Below, in pieces: positions 18,813 through 57,002 of a stretch of 64,000 nt of DNA. The notes under the pieces were generated by a model. The model did no database searches, was not told where the DNA came from, and saw only the letters and a list, made by a program, of their open reading frames with translations. A program made the position numbers and the translations under genes. Position 1 is the stretch's first letter, and each line of letters starts with the position of its first letter. The stretch covers positions 1,344,001 through 1,408,000 of the forward strand of contig OY760175.1 of the NCBI GenBank assembly GCA_963663165.1, written 5' to 3'. Source of the stretch: an uncultured Desulfospira sp. GTDB lineage: Bacteria; Desulfobacterota; Desulfobacteria; Desulfobacterales; Desulfobacteraceae.

Positions 18813-20690
18813 GTGCCTGACCGGAAACCCCGATTTTGAAATTTTCAGGGGGTCGATGTTTGACAAAACCTTAAATCTTTGTTGTTCCTGTCATCACAAA
18901 CCGGGAGAAATGCTTCCATCTCTGCCGGTTTTCGGCAACTTTCTCCTTTTCCGGACGCAACTGTAGTGTTTGCCGTGTTTTTTTTAAGCAATGGCCTGTT
19001 TTAAGCTGCTTTGCGCTGTTCAGACCCTTGCAGCTTTTTTAATCCCTTTTGTTGTATGTGATGCCCGATGATCTGGAGATTTCTTGCCAAAACCGACAGG
19101 CTCACATACCTCTTAAACCCTTGACTGCCATGATCCGGGCATCTGTCAAGACCATGATTTTCCAGTCCGTTTATGGCAGATTCCACCGCTGAATGTTTTC
19201 TTTTAAAACGAATGAAATCTTCCGCTGTTTCTTCTTCATATTCCGCCTTGTTGCATCTGCCTTTTTTCGGAAGCACCAAAATATCCAATCTGCCCTTCAG
19301 GTCCTTTTTGTTGCCTGGAGAGTAAAACCCTTTATCAAAACTGCATCCTTTGAGATCAGAAAATTTGCTTTGTGCCAATGTTACCATCGCAACGGCGACT
19401 TTATCATCGGTTTCTTTCTCCATCACCCGGTGGTGCAGGATAAAGCCATATTGGTCCTCCAGGATACATACCCGCAAGCCCAATTCCTGGGGAACACCGG
19501 CCTTGCCTTTTGAAATCCACTCCGTGTGGGGTTCGAAAATCGAAAAAATCTTGTCTTCATGGGGGATCTTTTCATCCTGTAACACCCGGCGTTTGATCAA
19601 ATCAATTTGCCAAAGTGCGTAGTTGATATATGTTTGTAATTCTTCAGCTCGGGCTGCACATATAATATCGGATGCCGGTATCATTTCCACGGTCAATCGC
19701 GCCTTTTGAATATATTTTTCAGCAAGCTTGATATATGCTGTATGGGCATCCATAATTTGCTGGACTCTTTTGGCCTTTTTCTTTTCATCCTTTGATGTGG
19801 AATGTTTCAAACGCTGGACTATTCGATAAAGCTTTTTAAATGCTTTAATATTATACGCTGATTGCCGCCACATACTCGTTCCAATGTCCTGGCTGATAAT
19901 AGCGGCAATTTGAATCATTTTTCGGACTGCATCAAAAAGCAGGTTGATATCTGTGGGATAATGAACATTGGTTTCTACAACGAATGAATCACACCGCCCA
20001 ATCAAGGCTCCATCGTCCGAAGTTTTTTTTTCATCAGAAGTTTATGGCCTTCTTGCACAACCAGAGTGTTGATTTTGTCAAGAATATCTGGGGTCATAAG
20101 CCTGACATTATCTTTCAGGGTCTGAAGGGGGTAGGCGATATCATTGTCCATCATGCCATGCCCCAGCATCTGCCTTATTGTTTTGTGGTTGTTCACCATT
20201 TCCTGGAGTTTATCATAATCCCAATTGCAATTGAGCCGAATGACGCCCATTACAAGGATCTTCCACAGGTCCATACCGGGACGTCCATTTTTAGAATCGG
20301 TACTTTCTGGGATCATGTCCGTGAGGATATCAAAAACTTTTTGTCGAAGACTCTGGTCGCAATAGATATGTTGGAGTCCCAAAAGAAGTTTGGGGATTTC
20401 ATCCCTGGCTCTCATATCAATTTTAATTTGATCGATAGGGGTCTGCCCGAATGTCATCTGTAGTTCAAAAATTTTACGCAAAACGACCTCGAAGTTCTGA
20501 TGGAATGTTGAAGTTTGAATTACTATTGGCTTGTCTCACAAAACATAAATCCTATATAATTTTATAGGGTTAGATTAACATAGTAATTAGTAAAAAGCAA
20601 CAAGTAATTCATATCACAACAGAAACTTCAAACGAATTTCAGCCCAGATACCCCTGGAAAATATGATGGTTCCAATTTCCGGTCAGGCAC
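18813..20690 (-). mobile_element. ISNCY-type insertion sequence
   Basis: TIR GTGCCTGACCGGAAA at both ends; palindromic TAATTA on both flanks (probable TSD, exact boundary +/-2 nt). Confidence 0.88.
19001..20481 (-). CDS. ISNCY DDE transposase in two ORFs (20002-20481 and 19001-20005) joined by a -1 frameshift at an A9 run
   Basis: GRPGMDLWKILV in ORF A; DSFVVETNVHYPTD, SFDKGFYS, HSAVESAIN in ORF B; A9C run at 20023-20031. Confidence 0.85.
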
Positions 20691-20708: not shown

Positions 20709-21380
20709 ATGCCGGATACCGTTTTTAAAGAAAGAGTCAGCGGACTTGAACAGATCATGATGGAGCTTGCCTATGAATCAATGAAAACTGACATGGCTCT
20801 CAAAAATCTTTCAGCAGAGATGAAAGACTTTAAAGACGAGATGAAAGACTTTAAAGACGAGATGAAAGACTTTAAAGATGAAATGAAAGACTTTAAAGAT
20901 GAAATGAAAGACTTTAAGAAGGAAATGAACAAAAAGTGGGGAGATCTGGCAAACAAGATGGGAACCATTGTTGAAGACATCGTTGCCCCCGGTTTAAAAG
21001 GTGTTGCCCGACAGTACTTTGGCGTGGAAGCTTTTGATCATTTTTCTTCCCGCACCATTATCCGCAACAAAGACCGGCCCACAACCCGTGAATTTGATAT
21101 AATTGCTTATACTGAAGACCTGTTTTTTATCGTGGAAACAAAAGCGACCCCACGGCCGGAGTATATTACGAATTTCATAAAATTTCTTCCCGAACTGGGC
21201 ACATGGTTTCCCGTCAGCCTGGAAAAAAAGCTGATTCCCATTTTTGCTTCTCTTGCCCTGTCCGATCAACATATCACCCACCTGACCAATCATAATATTA
21301 TCGCCATGGCCACCCGGGATGACGGGATGGATATTTACAATCCCGAGGTTCTGGAAAAGCTTGGCGTTAACGTTAAATAG
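20709..21380 (+). CDS. Coiled-coil repeat protein with PD-(D/E)XK-like C-terminal domain (DUF3782-like)
   Basis: (EMKDFKD)n, then WGDLANKMGTIVEDIVAP and REFDIIAY...IVETK. Confidence 0.8.
   Translation: MPDTVFKERVSGLEQIMMELAYESMKTDMALKNLSAEMKDFKDEMKDFKDEMKDFKDEMKDFKDEMKDFKKEMNKKWGDLANKMGTIVEDIVAPGLKGVARQYFGVEAFDHFSSRTIIRNKDRPTTREFDIIAYTEDLFFIVETKATPRPEYITNFIKFLPELGTWFPVSLEKKLIPIFASLALSDQHITHLTNHNIIAMATRDDGMDIYNPEVLEKLGVNVK
20817..20929 (+). repeat. In-frame 21-bp tandem repeat, ~5.4 copies
   Basis: GA(G/A)ATGAAAGACTTTAA(A/G)(GAC/GAT/AAG) units encoding EMKDFKD. Confidence 0.95.
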
Positions 21381-21395
21381 GAACGGCCTGTTTTT

Positions 21396-21440
21396 TAAGC
21401 AGGTAATCCTCCAATAACAGCTGGTTAGCGTGGCTCGACC
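21396..21440 (+). repeat. R repeat copy A (partial, 3' half only)
   Basis: taagcaggtaatcctccaataacagctggttagcgtggctcgacc matches the 3' half of copy C. Confidence 0.8.
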
Positions 21441-22042: not shown

Positions 22043-22262
22043 TTTGCAATTACCACCCATAAATGATTTTATATACATTGTTTATGATATATCTGCTCAG
22101 CTTTGAAATCAAGTAAAGAACTCGCCCTGCCCAGAGTGATATATAAAAGTTAATAGACAGGCAATCCCTTAAATCAATGTTTTTGGGGGCAAAAACAGTC
22201 GATTAAGCCCATTTTACGTCTACTTTCAAGCAGTTAATTCTTTAATAACAGCTTGTTAGCGT

Positions 22263-24168
22263 GTCGCGGTAGGAATGCCGGTTACCCGGCACCCCCCGCA
22301 CAGATCCGTACGTGAGGTACTACCTCATACGGCTCCTACCTCGGGTAATAACGTTGAAATCTCTGATTTGGAAAAGGGTGAACAATTCTGACCCTTGGGA
22401 TCAACCATCTGATTAGTTTTTCAAAGCGCTCCCATGTGAAGTTCTGTCCTTTGTGACTCCTGCGCCTCAGTGTATGCAACCATGCCTTTGTTGTTTGGTC
22501 GTAGAAGCTTTTTACCAAATCCATGTTTCCGGGAACCGCATAATAATTCTGGAACCCTCTTATTACTGAATTTAGCCATTTTCCTGTTTCCTTTACATTG
22601 TCGTGCATACGTTCTTTCAGTTCAGCTTTGACTTCTTTCAGCTTTCGGACAAACCTTTTCTTAATAGTTTTACGACGTATGGTAAATGCGCCGCGTCGTG
22701 TCTTAGAGCACGAGTGGGTAAAGCCCAGGAAATCAAATGTCTCCGGTTTTCCTTGGCCTTTCCTCTGGCGGTTCGATTCTGCGAAACGTCCAAACTCAAT
22801 TAATCGAGTTTTATCCGGGTGCAGGTCAAGGCCAAATTTTCCCATTCTGCTAGTTAAATCCTTTAGAAAGTTTTCTGCATCATTTTTGTATTGGAAGCCG
22901 ACCACTGTATCATCGGCGTAACGGACTATGATTACGTCGCCTTTTGCATGTCTGCCTCTCCACTGATTTGCCCATAGGTCTTGTGCGTAATGCAGGTAAA
23001 CATTTGCCAATACAGGTGAGATTACCGAGCCCTGTGGGGTCCCGACTCCCTGTGCTATACGTTTACCGTCTTCAACAATCCCTACTTTGAGCCATTTTCT
23101 AATCAGCCGCAGTATTCTCTTATCCGCTACTCGGTGCTTTATAAATTTCAACAACCAATCGTGATTGATCTTGTCGAAAAATGCTGAAACATCGGCATCA
23201 AGTATATAATTTATTTTACACCTTGATATTCCCATGTATAAAGCGTCCAGAGCGTTATGTTGACTACGTTTTTCCCTGAAACCATAGCTAAAACCCATGA
23301 AGTCTGTCTCATAGATCTGGTTTAATATTATTGCCACTGCCTGCTGGACTATTTTATCTTCGAGAGCTGTTATCCCCAGTGGCCTTTTGCGGCCATCGGT
23401 CTTATTTATATAAGTCCTTTTTACCGGTGATGCTCTATAACTGCCAGCGTGCAATCTGTCGTGCAAGTATATTATCCGATTAGCTAAGTCTTCCTTGTAC
23501 ATATGCCAGGTTATTTCATCCACTCCTGGAGCAGCGTTTCTTTTTAGCTCAAAGAAGCTAACTGTCAGCAGGTCCGGGGTGATGTGATGAAAAAGGTTAT
23601 CAAACCTGACTTTCTTGTCCTGATGAGCTTTCCTACGCACACCATATAAACTGGTCGACGCAGCTACCCGCCCCTGTGTGCGGACTGCGGCAGTGCATAT
23701 GGTGTTTCCCTTGGTCAGCGTCCTTCCCTCCACCTGCTCCGCCGAGTTTTCAAACTCTTTGTTCGCTGGCTTCTTCGGTACTATGTTGCTGTCCGACTTC
23801 CACGGGCCGTGCATGGCAGCAGTATAGGATTTCCCCTTCACTGCCCGATCCCCTTTAGGGATAACCTGTGGATCTCCCGATTCCCGCGTAAAAGATGTCC
23901 ACACATGCCAGGTTCTAAGACTCCGCCGGGTTGTTCCCCTGCTTGCATAGCGCTGGGACTCATGTTGCCTTCCCTACCGGACCACGAGGTCGGCACCCGA
24001 GAGGTGGTGATTTCGGAGCTCAATAGCCCGCCTGTGCTTCCCTCTGTCCACGCTTCAGCCAATGCATTACTGCAATCGCCGCATGACTCGAGGCTGGTGT
24101 GATTTGCTAAACCTTCACCATAAGACTCTTTCATTCTCTATCCTTTACCGGTTTTAATCGGCGCTTTC
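22263..24168 (-). mobile_element. Group II intron (ribozyme plus RT/maturase ORF), 1906 nt
   Basis: Domain V GAGCCGTATGAGGTAGTACCTCACGTACGGATC; domain VI ending CCTACCGCGAC; boundaries fixed by comparison with uninterrupted R copies; EBS1 loop at 23978-23986. Confidence 0.92.
22336..23814 (-). CDS. ltrA: Group II intron reverse transcriptase/maturase (no HNH endonuclease domain seen)
   Basis: RPLGITALEDK, GTPQGSVISPVLAN, RYADD, FDFLGF and X domain; likely start MHGPWKSD at 23814. Confidence 0.93.
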   Translation of the reverse strand: MHGPWKSDSNIVPKKPANKEFENSAEQVEGRTLTKGNTICTAAVRTQGRVAASTSLYGVRRKAHQDKKVRFDNLFHHITPDLLTVSFFELKRNAAPGVDEITWHMYKEDLANRIIYLHDRLHAGSYRASPVKRTYINKTDGRKRPLGITALEDKIVQQAVAIILNQIYETDFMGFSYGFREKRSQHNALDALYMGISRCKINYILDADVSAFFDKINHDWLLKFIKHRVADKRILRLIRKWLKVGIVEDGKRIAQGVGTPQGSVISPVLANVYLHYAQDLWANQWRGRHAKGDVIIVRYADDTVVGFQYKNDAENFLKDLTSRMGKFGLDLHPDKTRLIEFGRFAESNRQRKGQGKPETFDFLGFTHSCSKTRRGAFTIRRKTIKKRFVRKLKEVKAELKERMHDNVKETGKWLNSVIRGFQNYYAVPGNMDLVKSFYDQTTKAWLHTLRRRSHKGQNFTWERFEKLIRWLIPRVRIVHPFPNQRFQRYYPR

Positions 24169-24386
24169 GGCCCGACCCCACCGCCAACCCACCGCCAGAC
24201 CCCCGCTGCGCTTTTAAATCTGTGAAATAGTGTTTGTTATGAAACCTTTCATATCTTATAATACAATACAAAAATGACTATTATTTCAGACTGGATTGCA
24301 TTGAGTTTGTAAAATGAAGGAACCATTTTATCCATTTTTCTAAATGGGATAGGATTTTTTTTAAAATGATCAACTACACAGCTAAA

Positions 24387-26229
24387 CCCAAAACAAGCGT
24401 GAGATAAGTAATAAAAATGAGATAAAATCCTCGAAACGCCTATCAATAAAAGGTATAATAAGTTTACCACAACGAAATATACCAAATTGAAAGGACGTTT
24501 CGAGTGAATAAAAATATCAACAAAAATTTGGCAAAACGCAAGAAAAAAATAAGCAAAAAGCTCAACAAAAGAGATTGGGATGAACAGCCAGCCCCTATGT
24601 TTAAAGCATCCAACATTCAATACGAGATTGACGGTCGCCTCCAAGGGGTTGCTCCCGGCGGCATAGGGTTAATTCATATGCTTGCCAAAAAGACCGGCCT
24701 TCTGAAAGAAATTGATAAGGAGCTCGAACTGCTTAAACGCCATTTGCCCTATCATGAATCAGATCATGTCGCCAACATGGCATATAATATTCTTGCCGGT
24801 GGCACCTGCCTTCAGGATATTGAGCTGCTCAGAAACAATGAAGCCTGGTTGAATGCTCTGGATGCAGAAATTATCCCCGATCCCACTACAGCCGGAGACT
24901 TTTTGCGCCGGTTTTCCAAGGAAGATATCATAACTCTGCAGGACGTCAAAAATACCATCCGGAAAAAGGTATGGGAAAAGCAGCCGCAAAACTTCAAGAA
25001 AGAAGCCATCATCAATATCGACGGCACTATCAGTGAAACAACCGGCGAGTGCAAACAGGGTATGGACATCTCTTATAATGGTAAGTGGGGATATGCCCCT
25101 CTGATAGTCTCTCTGGAAAAAACAAGGGAGCCTCTTTATATAATCAATCGATCCGGCAATGCTCCGTCCCACCTCAACTCTGCGGGTTGGGTGGATAAGT
25201 CCCTTGATCTGCTGGAAGGCACTTTTAAAAAATTATACGTTCGGGGTGATACTGATTTCAGCCTTACTTCCAATTTTGACAAATGGGATCAACGCTGTAC
25301 CTTTGTCTTTGGCATGGATGCCAGATCAAACCTGATAAAACTGGCCGGTGGTCTTTCAGATTCCGAATGGGAGATATTTGAAAAACAGCCGCAAGCCATC
25401 AAAACAATCCCCAGAAAACGTCCCGAAAATATCAAACTTCAAGTGGTCAAAAAACGCAATTTCAAACGTCTTGAGACCGCCTGTGAACATATAGCCGAAT
25501 TTGAATATAAACCTGGTAAATGTCGGCAACCCTACCGGATGATCGTGCTGCGCAAAACAATAAATGAGTATAAAGGCGAACGTCTATTGTTTGACGATAT
25601 CCGTTACTTTTTTTACATCACAAACGATTGGAAAAAATCAGCCAGGCACCTGGTGGATTTTTACCGGAAACGGGCGGATCACGAAAATGACATTGATCAG
25701 TTGAAACATGGCGTGCATGCAATGGCTAATCCTTCTGATTCCCTAAATGCCAACTGGGCCTATATGGTTGTTGCATCTTTGGCATGGGATCTGAAAGCCT
25801 GGTATGGAATGATGATGCCGTATCGAGCTTTAGGTCTCTCCATCGTCCGTATGGAATTCAAACGCTTTATCCAGACATTTATAAATATCCCTTGCTTGAT
25901 CATACGTTCCAGCAGGGCCATTAAATATCGAATCATTGGTTATAACAACAGGCTCACAAGCGTGTTCAAGTTTTTTAACTCTTTGAAGACTGCCTGGGTT
26001 ACATGATGCCTTTGCTCCGGACAGTTATTGCAAACGGGCTGCAATGGCGAGTCTAAAACCTGTAGATTTCAAAAGGGAATTTAAGCAATGAACCACAACA
26101 CAATCGGCAGTATTCCAAAAAACATCAGGACTCGTGCGTCTGTTTGATGGAAATTGGAGACACAAAATAATAGCTCGGGTCGACAATTGCTTATGAGAAA
26201 TTCATTTTTTATAACACGCTTGTTTTGGG
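24387..26229 (+). mobile_element. IS1380-family insertion sequence
   Basis: TIR CCCAAAACAAGCGTG / CACGCTTGTTTTGGG; (G)CTAAA direct repeat on both flanks. Confidence 0.92.
24504..26006 (+). CDS. IS1380-family transposase
   Basis: IPDPTTAGDFLRRF, INIDGT, VRGDTDF, YRKRADHENDIDQLK. Confidence 0.92.
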   Translation: MNKNINKNLAKRKKKISKKLNKRDWDEQPAPMFKASNIQYEIDGRLQGVAPGGIGLIHMLAKKTGLLKEIDKELELLKRHLPYHESDHVANMAYNILAGGTCLQDIELLRNNEAWLNALDAEIIPDPTTAGDFLRRFSKEDIITLQDVKNTIRKKVWEKQPQNFKKEAIINIDGTISETTGECKQGMDISYNGKWGYAPLIVSLEKTREPLYIINRSGNAPSHLNSAGWVDKSLDLLEGTFKKLYVRGDTDFSLTSNFDKWDQRCTFVFGMDARSNLIKLAGGLSDSEWEIFEKQPQAIKTIPRKRPENIKLQVVKKRNFKRLETACEHIAEFEYKPGKCRQPYRMIVLRKTINEYKGERLLFDDIRYFFYITNDWKKSARHLVDFYRKRADHENDIDQLKHGVHAMANPSDSLNANWAYMVVASLAWDLKAWYGMMMPYRALGLSIVRMEFKRFIQTFINIPCLIIRSSRAIKYRIIGYNNRLTSVFKFFNSLKTAWVT

Positions 26230-26431: not shown

Positions 26432-26711
26432 ATGTCGGTCAAACGGCGTGATCTTATCCAACACATGAAACAGAATGGTTTCCATCTCCTAAGGGAAGGC
26501 GCCAACCATGCTATTTATATGAAAGTCTCACTAACGTCCTGAGAAGACTTTCAATATTTGTTGTGGGCGGCTCTTGGTTGGATAACCCAAGCCGTCCGTG
26601 ACGGTTTATACAAATGGAACCAAAATCATCCCTGTAAAACGCCACCGGCAATTCGATAGAATCACCGCAAACGAACTCTGCAAGCAAGCCGGGATAACAC
26701 CTAAATTCTAA
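26432..26711 (+). pseudogene. hicA: HicA-family toxin interrupted by a 91-bp hairpin element
   Basis: Removing the insert restores 62 aa MSVKRRDLIQH...REGANHAIY|TNGTKIIPVKRHRQ...CKQAGITPKF. Confidence 0.88.
26514..26610. mobile_element. 91-bp non-autonomous two-hairpin element bounded by TTTATA
   Basis: TGAAAGTCT...AGACTTTCA hairpin plus GGGCGGCTCTTGG...CCAAGCCGTCC hairpin; inserted in hicA; two more copies at 43416-43610. Confidence 0.85.
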
Positions 26712-26895
26712 TGATTGGATGAAATGGAAGTTTGCCATTGAAAGCTTGGCCAGCTTTTAAAAGTGTAACGCCTATCCCCTATATTCATAACGAAATAATG
26801 TAACGACCAGATACCCCGCTGCCATACCCTGCTAAAAAATTATAAAAATCATACCCCGCATGCCGACCCCGCCGGTAGACCCCGCCGCTGACTTA

Positions 26896-28274
26896 GGGAT
26901 GTGGTAAAATTAAAACCCACAATTCATTCCTCATAGCATGGAATATCAACAGCCCATTTTTCAATCCCTGGAATCCGAATAATTTTGTTTTCTATATTAT
27001 TCACGGCGGACTTGACCAAACGTACCCCTGTCGGGTAAACACCTTTGATTAATTTGACGACAGGATTTTCTCCTTTCCATGTCATTGTTCGACATAGACC
27101 GAGAACCTTTTCAATTTTGTTCAGCAATTCGCCTTTCCAATGATTTTCCAAAACACCCCAAACTCGCTCTATTGGGTTGTATTTACTGTGGTACGGGGGA
27201 TAGTACACCAAACTAATATTTACAAATGCTGATTTGGCAAAGTCCACGAGGCGACTAATGAATTGGCTCCTTCGGCTACTATTTTCCGGCCCATTATCAA
27301 GATTGATCACCAGTGTATGTGGGGCGAATCTTGCGTTCAAAGAAGGCCAGAGTGATTCCAGCGCATCAATCATGAAATCAGAGGTGATGTTGCTTTCAGT
27401 GAAGTACATATAATTTTCATCCAGAGCAGGTATGTTGATACCGAAAAGTTTCAAAAGGGAATCGGGTTTAAAATCATGGTCCGCCGCTTTAAGATTGCAA
27501 CGACTATATCCGCCTCGGGAATAAGGCCCTATTTTAATAGTGGCTTTTGCGTCCATTGAGATACGTAAAACGCCATCTGTTTCATCGGCTAGTTGGTTTG
27601 TCCTATGCACATATTCAAAAATGATGTCTGTTTCAGGAATTTTTTTTTACCTTGGCTTTGGCGACCTTCTTCAGTTTAAAACCCAATTTATTCATTATGG
27701 TGGATAGAGTCCGTACTGTTGGCATATTCTCAGGGTCATATCCCATGTCGTCAACTAATCGACGGAATACTTCATTCGCAGATATTGGGGAATATAAATT
27801 CTGGGTACGGAATGTAGGATCAGTCTGACATATAGGGTTTACAATACGAGTTATGTCCTCTTTTAAATTCGGAAAATGTTCTAAACACGATTTCCGGCCT
27901 CGTCCGGAAAAATTATCAACACAGGTAACTCCGCTTTCTATTTCCCGTCGCCCTTTGATTATTGTTTTCCGATCCCAACCCAGTTCTCTTTCAGCCTTTA
28001 GTTGTCCGCCGTGCCCCATAAGGGAGACAACGCGTGCCATGAATTGGCGCCGTTCATGGCCTTTTAATTTGCTTCGAGTGGTATTCAGAAAATCCTTTAG
28101 TGGTGGCGTTAATTCCGATATAGTTTTGGGTAAATTGTGCTTAGAATGATCAAACATGGTCCTCCTGTATTTTTATGTAATCTTCCATGTTGACCATAAA
28201 CTATCGATTCCATGTTGTCTATAAAAATCAGAATTCAGACTATGGAATTGTGGATATTAATTTTTCTGAGGCCC
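26896..28274 (-). mobile_element. ISAzo13-family IS, copy 1
   Basis: GGG...CCC imperfect TIRs, TTA on both flanks; near-identical to 55568-56947. Confidence 0.92.
26924..28157 (-). CDS. ISAzo13 transposase in two ORFs (27633-28157, 26924-27610) joined at an A9 run
   Basis: GWDRKTI, QTDPTF; KKIPETD across the shift; ISMDAKA, DNGPEN, YYPPYHSKYNPIER. Confidence 0.88.
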
Positions 28275-28325
28275 TTATTCAAAATTTGCTACATATAATC
28301 TCCGTGATTCGAATCTTGGAGAAAA

Positions 28326-33150: not shown

Positions 33151-33199
33151 TTCTATCATTTTTTTATGAGATCGGAACATATAAAATAGAAGCCAGCAA

Positions 33200-33306
33200 C
33201 CTTAAATCGATGTTTTTGGGGGTAAAAACAGTCGATTAAGCCCGTTTTAGGCCCCCAAATAAGCAGGTAATCCTTTAATAACTGCTGGTTAGCGTGGCCC
33301 GACCCC
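33200..33306 (+). repeat. R repeat copy C (107 bp)
   Basis: ccttaaatcgatgtttttgggggtaaaaacagtcgattaag...ggttagcgtggcccgacccc. Confidence 0.9.
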
Positions 33307-33384
33307 ACCGCGACCCACCGCGGTCCGTGCCCACCGCGCTCCGTCCGGCACCCAAGTCCCAACTATGTACTTTTTTTCAACATG

Positions 33385-34819: not shown

Positions 34820-34926
34820 GGGGTCGGTCCGCGCCAACCAGCTGTTATTAAACGATTAACTGTTTAAAAACTGCCCTAAAACGAGCTTAATCGACTCTTT
34901 TCACCCCCCAAAACACTGATTTAAGG
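34820..34926 (-). repeat. R repeat copy D (107 bp, inverted relative to A-C)
   Basis: ggggtcggtccgcgccaaccagctgttattaaa...cactgatttaagg. Confidence 0.9.
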
Positions 34927-35003
34927 ATTTAACCCCAAATTCGATACTGTAAAATGGTATGGAAAGAATACGATTTTTAATATCCATATCATCCTTACGG
35001 GTC

Positions 35004-35110
35004 GGGGTCGGGCCACGCAAACCAGCTGTTATTAAACGATTAACTGTTTAAAAACTGCCCTAAAACGAGCTTAATCGACTCTTTTCACCCCCCAAAACGC
35101 TGATTTAAGG
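35004..35110 (-). repeat. R repeat copy E (107 bp), overlapping the ATPase stop codon
   Basis: ggggtcgggccacgcaaaccagctgttatt...cgctgatttaagg. Confidence 0.9.
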
Positions 35111-36422
35111 ATTTAACCCCAAATTCGATACTGTAAAATGGTATGGAAAGAATACGATTTTTAATATCCATATCATAGCCTGCCTGTGAAATTTTTATGC
35201 CAAAGTCAGATTTGAACGTATCAATAAACAGATGCATGCTTTTCATGTGCCCGTTGGCGCCGGATTTAACCTCAACGGGGATAACTTTCTCATTTTTTAC
35301 AATAAGGTAGTCTATTTCGGCGGTACTGTTCCGGGCGGCGCGGGCCCAATAATAAAGCGACGGCTTTGTATAGGCAGACTGATTTGCCATTAACTGCTGC
35401 CCTACAAACTGCTCGGAAACAGCGCCTTTAAAAATATCTGTAAAATCTTTTGCCCGGGCTGTTTCACCATAAATGTGATTCATTGCATGCATGAGTCCAA
35501 CATCAAGAAACAATGCCTTAAAATAGTTTTCTTTTGCACCGGCTTCTAAAGGCAGACCGGCGCCGCTTGTGGATTTGATCCTGACAATAACGCCTGCCAT
35601 TTCCAATAATTCAACAGCCTCTTTTAACTCTCTGGATTTAATGGAGCTGTCAATATTGGTGTAAACAAATTTTTGGCCCACCATTTTAGGCACGGCATAG
35701 AATACTTTTCGCAAATATCTGTGTTTCACTTTTTTTGCGTATTTCCCAAAGTCATCCATATACGTGTCAACTATTGACTGCTGGATTCTCTGGCATTTTT
35801 CAATATTTCCGGATAACCTATACTCCTGAAGCACCGCCGGCATACCACCTAATAAAAAGAATTTTCTAACATATTCAAGCAAACGGATATGAAGCGCCTC
35901 AGGCAATTTTTGCAGTTCAACTTTATTGTTTATATGTTTTCTCAGGGCTGTTTCGCCCATTGCATCAAGAAACTCCCCGTATGACAGGGGAAACATATAC
36001 AGGTACTGGACCCGGCCAACGGGCATACGAAAATTCTCAGAGTTCAAAGTAAATTCAACCAAAGATCCGGCGGCAATAACATGTAACTTGGGAAGTTCCT
36101 CGAAGAAATACCTTAATGCCATAATGGCTGCCGGGCAATCCTGTATTTCATCTAAAAAAAGCAATGTTTTTCCAATACTGGCTTGCTGCTGGGAAAACAA
36201 AAATATTTTTTCTAGAATTTCAACGGGATCAATACTTGTAAAAATCTCTTTATATTCAGGGTTCTTTTCAAAATTGAGTTCAATATAATTTTCAAATTCT
36301 TCCTTCCCAAAATGCCTGACCACATATGTTTTTCCAACTTGCCGTGGGCCACGGATAATTAATGGGCGCCTGTTTGATTCGGCTTTCCATTGCACAAGGA
36401 CTTCATATACATCTCTTTTCAT
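35085..36422 (-). CDS. AAA_14/DUF4143-family ATPase
   Basis: GPRQVGKT, LFLDEIQ, GGMPAV, EIDY...PVEVKSG. Confidence 0.9.
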   Translation of the reverse strand: MKRDVYEVLVQWKAESNRRPLIIRGPRQVGKTYVVRHFGKEEFENYIELNFEKNPEYKEIFTSIDPVEILEKIFLFSQQQASIGKTLLFLDEIQDCPAAIMALRYFFEELPKLHVIAAGSLVEFTLNSENFRMPVGRVQYLYMFPLSYGEFLDAMGETALRKHINNKVELQKLPEALHIRLLEYVRKFFLLGGMPAVLQEYRLSGNIEKCQRIQQSIVDTYMDDFGKYAKKVKHRYLRKVFYAVPKMVGQKFVYTNIDSSIKSRELKEAVELLEMAGVIVRIKSTSGAGLPLEAGAKENYFKALFLDVGLMHAMNHIYGETARAKDFTDIFKGAVSEQFVGQQLMANQSAYTKPSLYYWARAARNSTAEIDYLIVKNEKVIPVEVKSGANGHMKSMHLFIDTFKSDFGIKISQAGYDMDIKNRILSIPFYSIEFGVKSLNQRFGG

Positions 36423-36591
36423 TATCCATATCTCGTATTATAAATGGTTAATGAATTATAAAAGGGAGATGGCCGAAATACAAGGATATTTTCTATAGAA
36501 ATTGGACTTTTTCCAAGGTAAAAACAGATGTTTTTTGGACAAAATCCTGTCTGCGCCTTTGCACCGAGGGCTTCGCCCTATTTTTTTATAT

Positions 36592-36673
36592 TCTCACGCT
36601 AAGGCGCTAAGGCGCAAAGAAACAGCATTGCCCAAGGGGAATTTAAACTTTGCGCCTTTGCGCCTTTGCGAGA
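36592..36673. repeat. Octamer-repeat hairpin 'H' (CGC(T/A)AAGG / CTTTGCGC arms)
   Basis: tctcacgctaaggcgctaaggcgcaaag...ctttgcgcctttgcgcctttgcgaga; near-identical to 38911-38983. Confidence 0.85.
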
Positions 36674-36687
36674 TTATGGTTAGGCGG

Positions 36688-36794
36688 GGGGGCGGGCCAC
36701 GCCAACCAGCTGTTATTAAACGATTAACTGTTTAAAAACGGCCCTAAAACGAGCTTAATCGACTTTTTTCACCCCCAAAAACACTGATTTAAGG
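36688..36794 (-). repeat. R repeat copy F (107 bp)
   Basis: gggggcgggccacgccaaccagctgttatt...cactgatttaagg. Confidence 0.9.
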
Positions 36795-36806
36795 ATTTGG
36801 CTGATC

Positions 36807-38686: not shown

Positions 38687-38910
38687 CTGGAGTATATTCC
38701 AACTTATTATCATTTTTTTGGGAGTATACTCCAATTATAGGAAAAAATCAAACTTTGCAAGGGGGGGGTTATCGGGTGACCCTACGACCATGCCTTCATT
38801 TGGAACACGGAGAATTGGCACGATACTAATTAATTGGATTGAATAATTGGGCAGTAAAAATTACATTTTACCCTTTGGCCTATCAAAAAACCCGCCCTCT
38901 ATTTTTATAT

Positions 38911-38983
38911 TCTCACGCTAAGGCGCTAAGGCGCAAAGAAACAGCATTGCCCAAGGGAGGTTAAGCTTTGCGCCTTTGCGAGA
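38911..38983. repeat. Octamer-repeat hairpin 'H', copy 2
   Basis: Same arms and same loop (aacagcattgcccaaggg) as 36592-36673. Confidence 0.85.
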
Positions 38984-43415: not shown

Positions 43416-43610
43416 TTTATATGAAAGTCTGACTAACTACCCGTAAAGACTTTCAATATTTGTTGTGGGCGGATCTTGGTTGGATAACCAAATCAGCCCG
43501 TGGCTGTTATATGAAAGTCTCAGTAACGTCCTTAGAAGACTTTCAATATTTGTTGTGGACGGTTCTTGGTTGGATAACCCAAGCCGTCCGGTTTCTGCCC
43601 TTCAGGGTAT
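43416..43610. mobile_element. Tandem pair of the 90/91-bp two-hairpin element
   Basis: Two TTATATGAAAGTCT...AGACTTTCAATATTTGTTGTGG...TTGGTTGGATAACC units, 90 bp apart; the second has a 19-bp extra hairpin. Confidence 0.85.
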
Positions 43611-47782: not shown

Positions 47783-47872
47783 ATCAAAATCTCACAGGGT
47801 AACCGAATGCAACTTGCCTGCAATGTAAACTTACCAAATACAATTTCAGTGCTTCGCACTGAAATATTCTAT

Positions 47873-47951
47873 TCTCACGCAAAGGCGAAAAGGCGCAAAG
47901 ATTAGTTCCCTATAGCAGTGTTTTTCTTTGCGCCTTTGCGCCTTTGCGTGA
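47873..47951. repeat. Octamer-repeat hairpin of the H family (different loop)
   Basis: tctcacgcaaaggcgaaaaggcgcaaag...ctttgcgcctttgcgcctttgcgtga. Confidence 0.8.
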
Positions 47952-55544: not shown

Positions 55545-55567
55545 GATAAAAATCATCCGTTTGGTTA

Positions 55568-56947
55568 GGGATGTGGTAAAATTAAAACCCACAATTCATT
55601 CCTCATAGCATGGAATATCAACAGCCCATTTTTCAATCCCTGGAATCCGAATAATTTTGTTTTCTATATTATTCACGGCGGACTTGACCAAACGTACCCC
55701 TGTCGGGTAAACACCTTTGATTAATTTGACGACAGGATTTTCTCCTTTCCATGTCATTGTTCGACATAGACCGAGAACCTTTTCAATTTTGTTCAGCAAT
55801 TCGCCTTTCCAATGATTTTCCAAAACACCCCAAACTCGCTCTATTGGGTTGTATTTACTGTGGTACGGGGGATAGTACACCAAACTAATATTTACAAATG
55901 CTGATTTGGCAAAGTCCACGAGGCGACTAATGAATTGGCTCCTTCGGCTACTATTTTCCGGCCCATTATCAAGATTGATCACCAGTGTATGTGGGGCGAA
56001 TCTTGCGTTCAAAGAAGGCCAGAGTGATTCCAGCGCATCAATCATGAAATCAGAGGTGATGTTGCTTTCAGTGAAGTACATATAATTTTCATCCAGAGCA
56101 GGTATGTTGATACCGAAAAGTTTCAAAAGGGAATCGGGTTTAAAATCATGGTCCGCCGCTTTAAGATTGCAACGACTATATCCGCCTCGGGAATAAGGCC
56201 CTATTTTAATAGTGGCTTTTGCGTCCATTGAGATACGTAAAACGCCATCTGTTTCATCGGCTAGTTGGTTTGTCCTATGCACATATTCAAAAATGATGTC
56301 TGTTTCAGGAATTTTTTTTTACCTTGGCTTTGGCGACCTTCTTCAGTTTAAAACCCAATTTATTCATTATGGTGGATAGAGTCCGTACTGTTGGCATATT
56401 CTCAGGGTCATATCCCATGTCGTCAACTAATCGACGGAATACTTCATTCGCAGATATTGGGGAATATAAATTCTGGGTACGGAATGTAGGATCAGTCTGA
56501 CATATAGGGTTTACAATACGAGTTATGTCCTCTTTTAAATTCGGAAAATGTTCTAAACACGATTTCCGGCCTCGTCCGGAAAAATTATCAACACAGGTAA
56601 CTCCGCTTTCTATTTCCCGTCGCCCTTTGATTATTGTTTTCCGATCCCAACCCAGTTCTCTTTCAGCCTTTAGTTGTCCGCCGTGCCCCATAAGGGAGAC
56701 AACGCGTGCCATGAATTGGCGCCGTTCATGGCCTTTTAATTTGCTTCGAGTGGTATTCAGAAAATCCTTTAGTGGTGGCGTTAATTCCGATATAGTTTTG
56801 GGTAAATTGTGCTTAGAATGATCAAACATGGTCCTCCTGTATTTTTTATGTAATCTTCCATGTTGACCATAAACTATCGATTCCATGTTGTCTATAGAAA
56901 TCAGAATTCAGACTATGGAATTGTGGATATTAATTTTTCTGAGGCCC
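55568..56947 (-). mobile_element. ISAzo13-family IS, copy 2
   Basis: TTA on both flanks; differences seen from copy 1 are a 1-bp indel and one substitution upstream of the transposase. Confidence 0.92.
55596..56829 (-). CDS. ISAzo13 transposase in two ORFs joined at an A9 run
   Basis: Protein sequences identical to copy 1. Confidence 0.88.
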
Positions 56948-57002
56948 TTAATTGTTTACCGGACATATCTTAAAGTTTAAAAAGCAGGACCACAGGCGGC
57001 TG

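Follow-up and report, generated by a model that had tools for sequence, protein, structure and literature searches.

RmInt1 is a group II intron without an endonuclease domain (ED) that homes into the repeated element ISRm2011-2 in a replication-fork-dependent manner. The part of a 2015 review that deals with targets distinguishes three specificities of bacterial group II introns, namely homing sites, terminator motifs and attC sites (PMC4424553), and introns of the last kind, the IIC-attC introns, are described in part of another study (PMC3001079). The insertion sequences (IS) IS1397, ISPpu9, ISPpu10 and ISPa11 insert at repetitive extragenic palindromic (REP) sequences, and the relevant section of the REP survey by Tobes and Pareja presents a P. 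putida group II intron as REP-associated in two of nine copies, with no specificity claimed there (PMC1525189). REP sequences belong with REP-associated tyrosine transposases (RAYT): in the portions of the source on their organisation, a REPtron is a RAYT gene flanked by inverted copies of a dispersed repeat, and the RAYT/TnpA-REP family includes subclasses with atypical repeats lacking the GT[AG]G foot (PMC6006769). We describe here a group II intron inserted in one copy of a repeat, called R, in a 64,000-nucleotide stretch of an uncultured Desulfospira sp. (contig OY760175.1, positions 1,344,001 to 1,408,000; the window). We consider it probable (about 0.8) that it is an intact, mobile, ED-less group II intron of a Desulfobacterota lineage, whose exon-binding site 1 (EBS1) is tuned to the CGGRCC of R, and that R is the REP-like flanking repeat of a RAYT-like gene. 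A literature search found no report of a REP-specific group II intron lineage (subscription journals and supplements not covered) and no description of the R motif (subscription journals not covered).

Boundaries, anatomy and EBS1 of the intron

Coordinates are window positions unless marked genome, and the intron lies on the minus strand. The group II intron at this locus was confirmed. The original prediction had placed it in R copy B at CGGGCC/ACG, from 22263 to 24179. Comparison with empty R copies bore out this insertion point, with a 1-base ambiguity on the shared C, and the flanks joined across the intron restored a copy of the repeat seen elsewhere in the window. The similarity between homologues begins and ends at the intron boundary bases. 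Contigs from other sequencing runs split off at 22262/22263, which confirmed the 3' boundary; among the contigs of four sequencing runs, none bridged an empty site and only this 3'-boundary divergence was seen. The predicted start was thus correct, the predicted end including 11 bases of the 5' exon. The intron and its exons comprise the following features:

22263 to 24168, minus strand: complete group II intron, 1906 nt (empty R copies, limits of homologue similarity, diverging contigs)
23911 to 24129, minus strand: 5' part of the ribozyme, domains D1 to D4 (Rfam RF02005, 177.9 bits against 49, E 6.6e-52)
22336 to 23904, minus strand: open reading frame (ORF) of 522 codons for a reverse transcriptase (RT)/maturase, likely ATG at 23814, YADD kept (RVT_1, TIGR04416)
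22263 to 22337, minus strand: domains V and VI (42 bits with Rfam RF00029, whose gathering score is 40)
23963 to 23994, minus strand: Id3-like hairpin, its terminal loop holding EBS1 (covariance-model structure line, compensatory changes)
23978 to 23983, minus strand: EBS1 GGUCCG, loop positions 3-8 (pairs with CGGGCC, covaries with the intron-binding site 1, IBS1, across lineages)
24169 to 24174, minus strand: IBS1 CGGGCC, the last six bases of the 5' exon (empty R copies, homologues)
24169 to 24179, minus strand: 5' stub of R copy B, GGGGTCGGGCC (empty-copy comparison)
22158 to 22262, minus strand: 3' part of R copy B, two imperfect hairpins (nhmmer match, genome 1366158-1366263, profile 12-117)

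RF02005 was the best Rfam model of its clan for the intron, and homologues of the intron scored 151-196 bits with it. The ORF lies in domain IV, between the RF02005 and RF00029 matches, and matched TIGR04416 over residues 114-482 with 358 bits (cut-off 300). As predicted, no endonuclease domain was matched in the ORF, and no space for such a domain is left outside the TIGR04416 span. The ribozyme without the ORF is small, ~400 nt. Solved group II RTs of IIA, IIB and IIC scored alike against the intron RT (118-138 bits; IIC 125-134 bits, IIB 138 bits), scores that do not discriminate the class. In the literature on classes E/F and new varieties no class-diagnostic feature applicable to this intron was found, nor was an assignment of RF02005 to a class. 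The crystallised IIC intron belongs to a D1D4 model other than RF02005.

The sequence CGUGGUCCG at 23986-23978 is located entirely inside the terminal loop of the hairpin 23963-23994, exactly at the domain I loop position that had been predicted. In the Rfam alignment this hairpin is the first one past the 13-nt internal loop of domain I. Nine aligned homologues exhibited changes on both sides in five of its seven pairs. In them 84% of the cells were paired; shuffling lowered this to 65%, and sliding the partner to 49% or less. The hairpin is supported by the covariance model and covariation, not by minimum free energy (MFE) folding. EBS1 and IBS1 form a helix of five Watson-Crick pairs and one G-U pair.

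The pairing originally proposed covered 9 nt across the junction. Its six 5'-exon pairs hold, and the three 3'-exon pairs are not supported: AAG 3' exons occur beside introns with an identical loop, in one homologue (L009) a loop A faces an exon C in the putative extension, and of the 27 distinct sites 19 have A at position +1, 7 have C and one has T, whereas the loop U adjoining EBS1 stays constant. Chance alone would yield ~0.3 matches to a 9-mer with at most one mismatch in 1906 bases (10.8 in 64 kb). Taken by itself the 9-mer match is therefore weak, and the EBS1 assignment takes its weight from the structural position and the covariation. No EBS2 was found by inspection, and in the search for EBS3 or delta no D1 column distinguished +1 = A sites from +1 = C sites.

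RT homologues and their exon flanks were collected for the covariation, as had been proposed, from 24 loci in species genomes and 49 in metagenomes. The close clade was defined by an RT identity of at least 73% and comprises 15 distinct sites with both EBS1 and 5' exon. EBS1 and IBS1 pair at 6/6 positions in 13 of them, with two compensatory double changes (L067 GGUCUG/CAGGCC and L071 GGUCAG/CUGACC). Distant introns of the same Rfam type pair at 6/6 positions in four of the five examined (L020 UGUCCU/AGGACA, L018 UGAGUG/CACUUA, L022 UAAGCA/UGCUUA, L090 UAAGCG/CGCUUA) and at 5/6 in the fifth, L089. Their EBS1 loops are wholly different from those of the close clade and each is fitted to its own exon, which puts EBS1 and the 5' splice site on firm ground. 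The EBS1-IBS1 pairing covaries, as in a mobile group II intron.

Preference of the intron lineage for R

R (~110 nt) consists of TGGGGTCGGRCC-AMGCTAAY, a variable hairpin and a second long imperfect palindrome, the latter with conserved CTTAA/TTAAG or CTATA/TATAG ends and a T5/A5 apex. Besides copy B the window contains these copies, the last line being a neighbouring feature of copy B:

21396 to 21440, minus strand: copy A, truncated to the first ~45 nt, target substituted (CGAGCC; reads CGAGCCACG)
33195 to 33307, minus strand: copy C, unoccupied, target intact at 33293-33301 (nhmmer)
34820 to 34933, plus strand: copy D, target substituted (reads CGGTCCGCG) (nhmmer)
35004 to 35117, plus strand: copy E, unoccupied, target intact at 35009-35017 (nhmmer)
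36688 to 36801, plus strand: copy F, unoccupied, target intact at 36693-36701 (nhmmer)
24180 to 24215, minus strand: G-rich short tandem units repeating the R 5' end, GGCGGTGGG(G)T (same feature beside most R copies)

The target CGGGCCACG is kept in copies C, E and F and substituted in A and D, in agreement with the original prediction. In the genome, 28 of 45 R copies have CGGRCC followed by A and are unoccupied.

The exons of close homologues were compared with a profile built from 31 R copies of this genome only. At E <= 1e-3 the R profile matched 16 of the 27 distinct 3' exons, 12 of them in the exact register (profile position 13 at exon base 1) and the other four with a ~10-nt indel, whereas none of 1350 random genome pieces of 170 nt matched, even at E <= 1. 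The motif GG[TAC]C[GAT]G[GA]CC ends 14 of the 17 distinct 5' exons. These frequencies support a lineage specialised on R, as predicted from the sequence, rather than close homologues inserted in unrelated sequences, the outcome that the prediction had set against it.

Pairing with the 5' exon is a property of all functional group II introns, and this one could have landed in R by chance with no preference of the lineage. The chance expectation given above for the 9-mer leaves room for this, one of the ~45 R copies in the genome is occupied, and the homologues L079, L110 and L011 lie in non-R sequence. But the 16 independent 3' exons against no random piece, the motif common to the 14 5' exons, and the remnants of the intron in the window genome, which come after the same motif, already disfavour such a trivial pairing, and we hold it to be highly improbable. 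These remnants directly follow GGGTCGGACC (genome 1246185) and GGTCGGGCC (genome 1233593); an additional RT fragment is located at genome 3581633.

One metagenome-assembled genome (MAG) carries three intron copies of 1918 nt, 0-1 base apart, with flanks 25-32% alike, which points to recent mobility; this intron is 93% similar to that of the window. The three copies bear on whether R was a pre-existing target or was carried along with the intron, through 3' transduction or through a RAYT mobilising an intron-bearing R. Intron remnants do occur in 5' stubs of R, just downstream of which a fresh R copy lies, and RAYT-type enzymes could in principle move an R with an insert. But the identical introns (0-1 difference) stand beside different R subfamilies in unrelated flanks, which suggests that the phylogenies of the intron copies and of the flanking R are incongruent; R outnumbers the intron ~45 to 1 in the window genome, and the R motif is present in 40 of the order's 201 sampled genomes (the intron was not searched for in these). 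Joint movement of R and intron is thus very unlikely, and specialisation of the intron lineage on R as a target remains the preferred reading.

Two structural observations were made among the homologues. In the metagenome contig L078 two introns stand head to tail, the 3' end CCTACCGTGAC being joined straight to GAAAGCGCC; this junction may be a repeat assembly artefact, or the trace of an intron circle or a tandem insertion. In L011, L072, L073 and L086, which share one site, domain I is interrupted ~40 nt into the intron by an insertion of ~130 nt. Its ends, GGGCGCATTCCCATTTTCCCGG ... CCGGGAAAATGGGAATGCGCCC, are inverted, a duplicated GAATGAAAG stands on either side of it, and it resembles a small miniature inverted-repeat transposable element.

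R as a REP-like repeat beside a RAYT-like gene

R is dispersed in the genome, with 60 nhmmer matches in small clusters, of which 45 score at least 40 bits. Its 18-mer end motif GGGTCGGRCCRMGCWAAY was found exactly in 40 of the 201 genomes sampled from the order, and the reversed control gave 2 matches. An Rfam search on R returned no family and nothing credible, RNAalifold yielded no consensus for 47 R copies, whichever strand was taken, and the DNA folds of single copies were mutually inconsistent. The orientation of the ORFs nearest to R followed no consistent rule.

A scan for Y1 HUH transposases led to a gene of 265 aa (genome 4910638-4911432, minus strand) between two inverted R copies, the end motifs of which face outward. 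The protein matched NCBIfam NF047646, 'REP-associated tyrosine transposase', over its full length (E 1.9e-14), and the motifs NHxHL and DRYH, which we take to be catalytic, are invariant across 14 homologues. R adjoins the RAYT-like gene in all 14 loci examined, and in 10 of them the order is R(+), gene, R(-), with inverted R on both sides. RAYT homologues (E <= 1e-20) are present in 61 of the 201 genomes of the order, that is in 25 of the 40 with the 18-mer and in 36 of the 161 without it, related genomes being non-independent samples. Judged by these comparisons, R is a REP-like repeat, dispersed and atypical, that flanks a RAYT-like gene for an HUH (Y1) transposase, and the two are arranged much as in a REPtron. 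By analogy with its family, the RAYT-like protein would act on single-stranded R. The original prediction had concluded from the lack of an endonuclease domain that R is exposed as single-stranded DNA (ssDNA). That step fails because such introns can use any replication fork, whereas the conclusion gains independent, indirect support because R flanks a RAYT-like HUH gene, of an ssDNA-acting family. A second REPtron-like locus lies at genome 804635-807113, with R(+), an IS200-type tnpA insert (804960-805316), a RAYT paralogue of 55% identity (805427-806098) and R(-).

The prediction had also drawn an analogy with integrons. In a rival reading along this line, R would be an integron-type attC site, or a cassette-end site, and the intron a parasite of the IIC-attC type. 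R does occur in arrays with a spacing of 0.3-1.1 kb, next to small accessory genes (MazF, DUF2442, Uma2, DUF4143), its hairpins are imperfect and bulged, the genome has an IntI, and IIC-attC introns are known. But the true integron of the genome is 2.8 Mb away (IntI, 456 bits, genome 4194663-4195604) with its own canonical attC array, whose sites differ from R, and no R-profile match was found near IntI. R has no paired R''/R' boxes at its ends, stands in both orientations relative to neighbour genes and flanks the Y1 HUH gene at the 14 loci, and the insertion is 5' of the hairpins, not 3' of a stem-loop. R was rejected as an attC site, and this explanation is scarcely credible to us. The integron itself (genome 4178000-4195604) has ~130-nt attC sites and two 99%-identical repeats of ~1.75 kb (4183947-4185693 and 4189361-4191107), both with group II RT matches, possibly true IIC-attC introns.

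Directly 5' of nearly every R copy are two to five short tandem units (in the window at 24180-24215 and 33308-33370, genome-wide, and in other genomes too). They repeat the local 6-12 nt and end in GGGGT, for example GGAAATGGGGTT three times and then GGGGTCGGGCC, and nested R 5' stubs of 14-34 nt occur upstream of full R copies. The units and stubs give the impression of scars left by events that recurred at a single point of R.

R also seems to mark the edges of polymorphic-toxin and toxin-antitoxin regions. Five Rhs-repeat genes (genome 1222253-1224871, 1775013-1777511, 1781831-1784308, 3249644-3251950 and 3514269-3517055) end 140-670 nt upstream of a same-strand R, and a sixth (genome 3252651-3254804) begins just downstream of an R copy. 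When neighbour genes were clustered, Rhs genes and IS copies were rejected as partners of R and considered as neighbours only.

Other repeats and elements of the window comprise a ~93-nt family, TTTATATGAAAGTCT ... GGTTGGATAACC, in three copies (26514-26606, 43416-43508, 43506-43598); a palindromic repeat, CTCACGCTAAGGCGCTAAGGCGCAAAGA ... CTTTGCGCCTTTGCGCCTTTGCGAGA, in three copies upstream of genes (36567-36673, 38886-38983, 47848-47951); two near-identical copies of an ISAzo13-type IS (26893-28277, 55565-56950); further transposase genes or fragments at 19001-20005 (ISNCY) and 24504-26006 (DDE_Tnp_1_4); and a 21-nt tandem repeat of six to seven units (20781-20948) encoding KDFKDEM heptads in the ORF 20709-21380.

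Probable intron activity, proposed mechanism and comparison with known systems

Several observations weigh against the reading of a mobile intron tuned to a REP-like repeat. At the pairing level, two close-clade sites have a single EBS1/IBS1 mismatch, L011 (A-A) and L096 (A-G), and MFE folding of the single-sequence D1 did not reproduce the EBS1 hairpin, its fold being no better than shuffles (z = 0.36). Eleven of the 27 3' exons fell short of E 1e-3 with the R profile; three of these are at most 67 nt long and one is 97 nt, and the 3' exons of L007, L010, L011, L067, L095 and L110 look like non-R contexts. The window genome contains one full intron copy only, with the 28 apparently suitable targets left free. 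The RAYT-like protein scored 53.8 bits with NF047646 for a curated cut-off of 80 and 20.9 bits with PF01797 for 23, and on inspection the GT[AG]G foot of canonical REP sequences is absent from the R alignments. Both intron remnants are head-on to the inferred replication fork. The intron 5' end, GAAAGCG, departs from the canonical GUGYG, and no RNA run was listed among the sequencing runs holding the region. The 5' ends of relatives are GAUAGCG, GUACG, GAACG or GUUCG. A promoter scan gave a single weak minus-strand site ~310 nt upstream of the intron, which has no evidential value.

The non-canonical 5' end and the absence of a listed RNA run would also suit a decaying relic, a window copy which no longer splices or moves and whose R match records past specialisation, as would the single full copy alongside three remnants. 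But the ORF is open with its YADD kept, the D5/D6 and D1-D4 matches are both above the Rfam thresholds, the first 40-50 nt including GAAAGCG are identical in seven copies from other genomes, and the MAG described above holds three near-identical copies of a 93%-similar intron. We regard a relic as unlikely, though with a real chance of being correct, and we infer instead that the intron still splices and moves, probably with fork-dependent priming.

The intron would spread as follows. EBS1 GGUCCG would target CGGRCC, the last six bases before the junction in the most conserved part of R (TGGGGTCGGRCC/AMGCTAAY, then the two imperfect hairpins), and the intron RNA-protein particle would reverse-splice into the R-sense strand between CC and the next base. 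Without an endonuclease, priming of the complementary DNA would most likely be from nascent DNA at a replication fork. R would supply many near-identical intergenic targets per genome and across the order, because it is the flanking repeat of the RAYT-like gene. ED-less introns are expected to insert co-directionally, into the lagging-strand template. The GC skew places the origin near genome 4.0-4.25 Mb and the terminus near 0.75 Mb, and by this estimate the intron is co-directional with the fork, a single case equivalent to a coin flip; 33 R copies are head-on and 12 co-directional, clustered copies being non-independent. The part of the 2015 review on ED-less introns describes a primer from the leading or the lagging strand at the replication fork (PMC4424553).

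The two ssDNA systems might even be stacked, the intron lineage having specialised on precisely the end motif recognised or cut by the RAYT-like enzyme. An intron-bearing R would then block RAYT processing or be moved by RAYT as ssDNA, and R-RAYT would be an undescribed large REPtron family of Desulfobacterales. Each of the tandem units ahead of R finishes with GGGGT, and 6 nt separate this sequence from the intron insertion point. We consider this extension doubtful; if true, a group II intron would be able to spread by a second route, one based on DNA.

Among described systems, the IIC-attC introns such as S.ma.I2, as depicted in part of their literature, are among the closest in several respects: they are compact and ED-less, with a short EBS1-IBS1 pairing on a structured multi-copy repeat outside coding sequence, and their target repeat serves an ssDNA recombination system, as the RAYT-associated R may do. 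Unlike theirs, the target here is not attC, the insertion is at the 5' edge of R, upstream of the hairpins, and no stem-loop lies directly 5' of IBS1. With the class C (IIC) terminator introns the intron shares a small ribozyme, a six-base EBS1 and no EBS2 found, and its distant relatives L018, L089, L090 and L020 sit 0-15 nt 3' of perfect hairpins, a class C-like target type. The clade of at least 73% RT identity differs from them in targeting the R sequence motif and not a hairpin, and no hairpin precedes CGGRCC. Like RmInt1, the intron is ED-less and would multiply by homing into a repeated mobile element with the help of replication forks, but RmInt1 uses a long site with EBS1, EBS2 and EBS3 inside an IS gene, in contrast to the six-base pairing on a non-coding repeat found here. 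The IS elements that insert at REP sequences are driven by a transposase, whereas the invader of R is a group II intron.

The R-RAYT locus resembles REP/REPIN-RAYT REPtrons in having a Y1 HUH gene between inverted copies of an intergenic dispersed repeat. It differs in that R is ~110 nt long with two hairpins, a conserved 18-nt end motif and no GT[AG]G foot, and in that the RAYT-like protein is below the NCBIfam cut-off. A widespread, atypical REPtron-like system in Desulfobacterales, with a ~110-nt repeat at the edges of toxin-antitoxin/Rhs variable regions, would thus be a by-product of this comparison. The intron lineage offers a natural series of EBS1/IBS1 variants usable for homing assays, and would link two kinds of elements that both exploit the lagging-strand template. 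Set beside the homing sites, terminator motifs and attC sites already described, a lineage tuned to R would represent a fourth target type, of the 'safe, multi-copy, structured DNA' kind.

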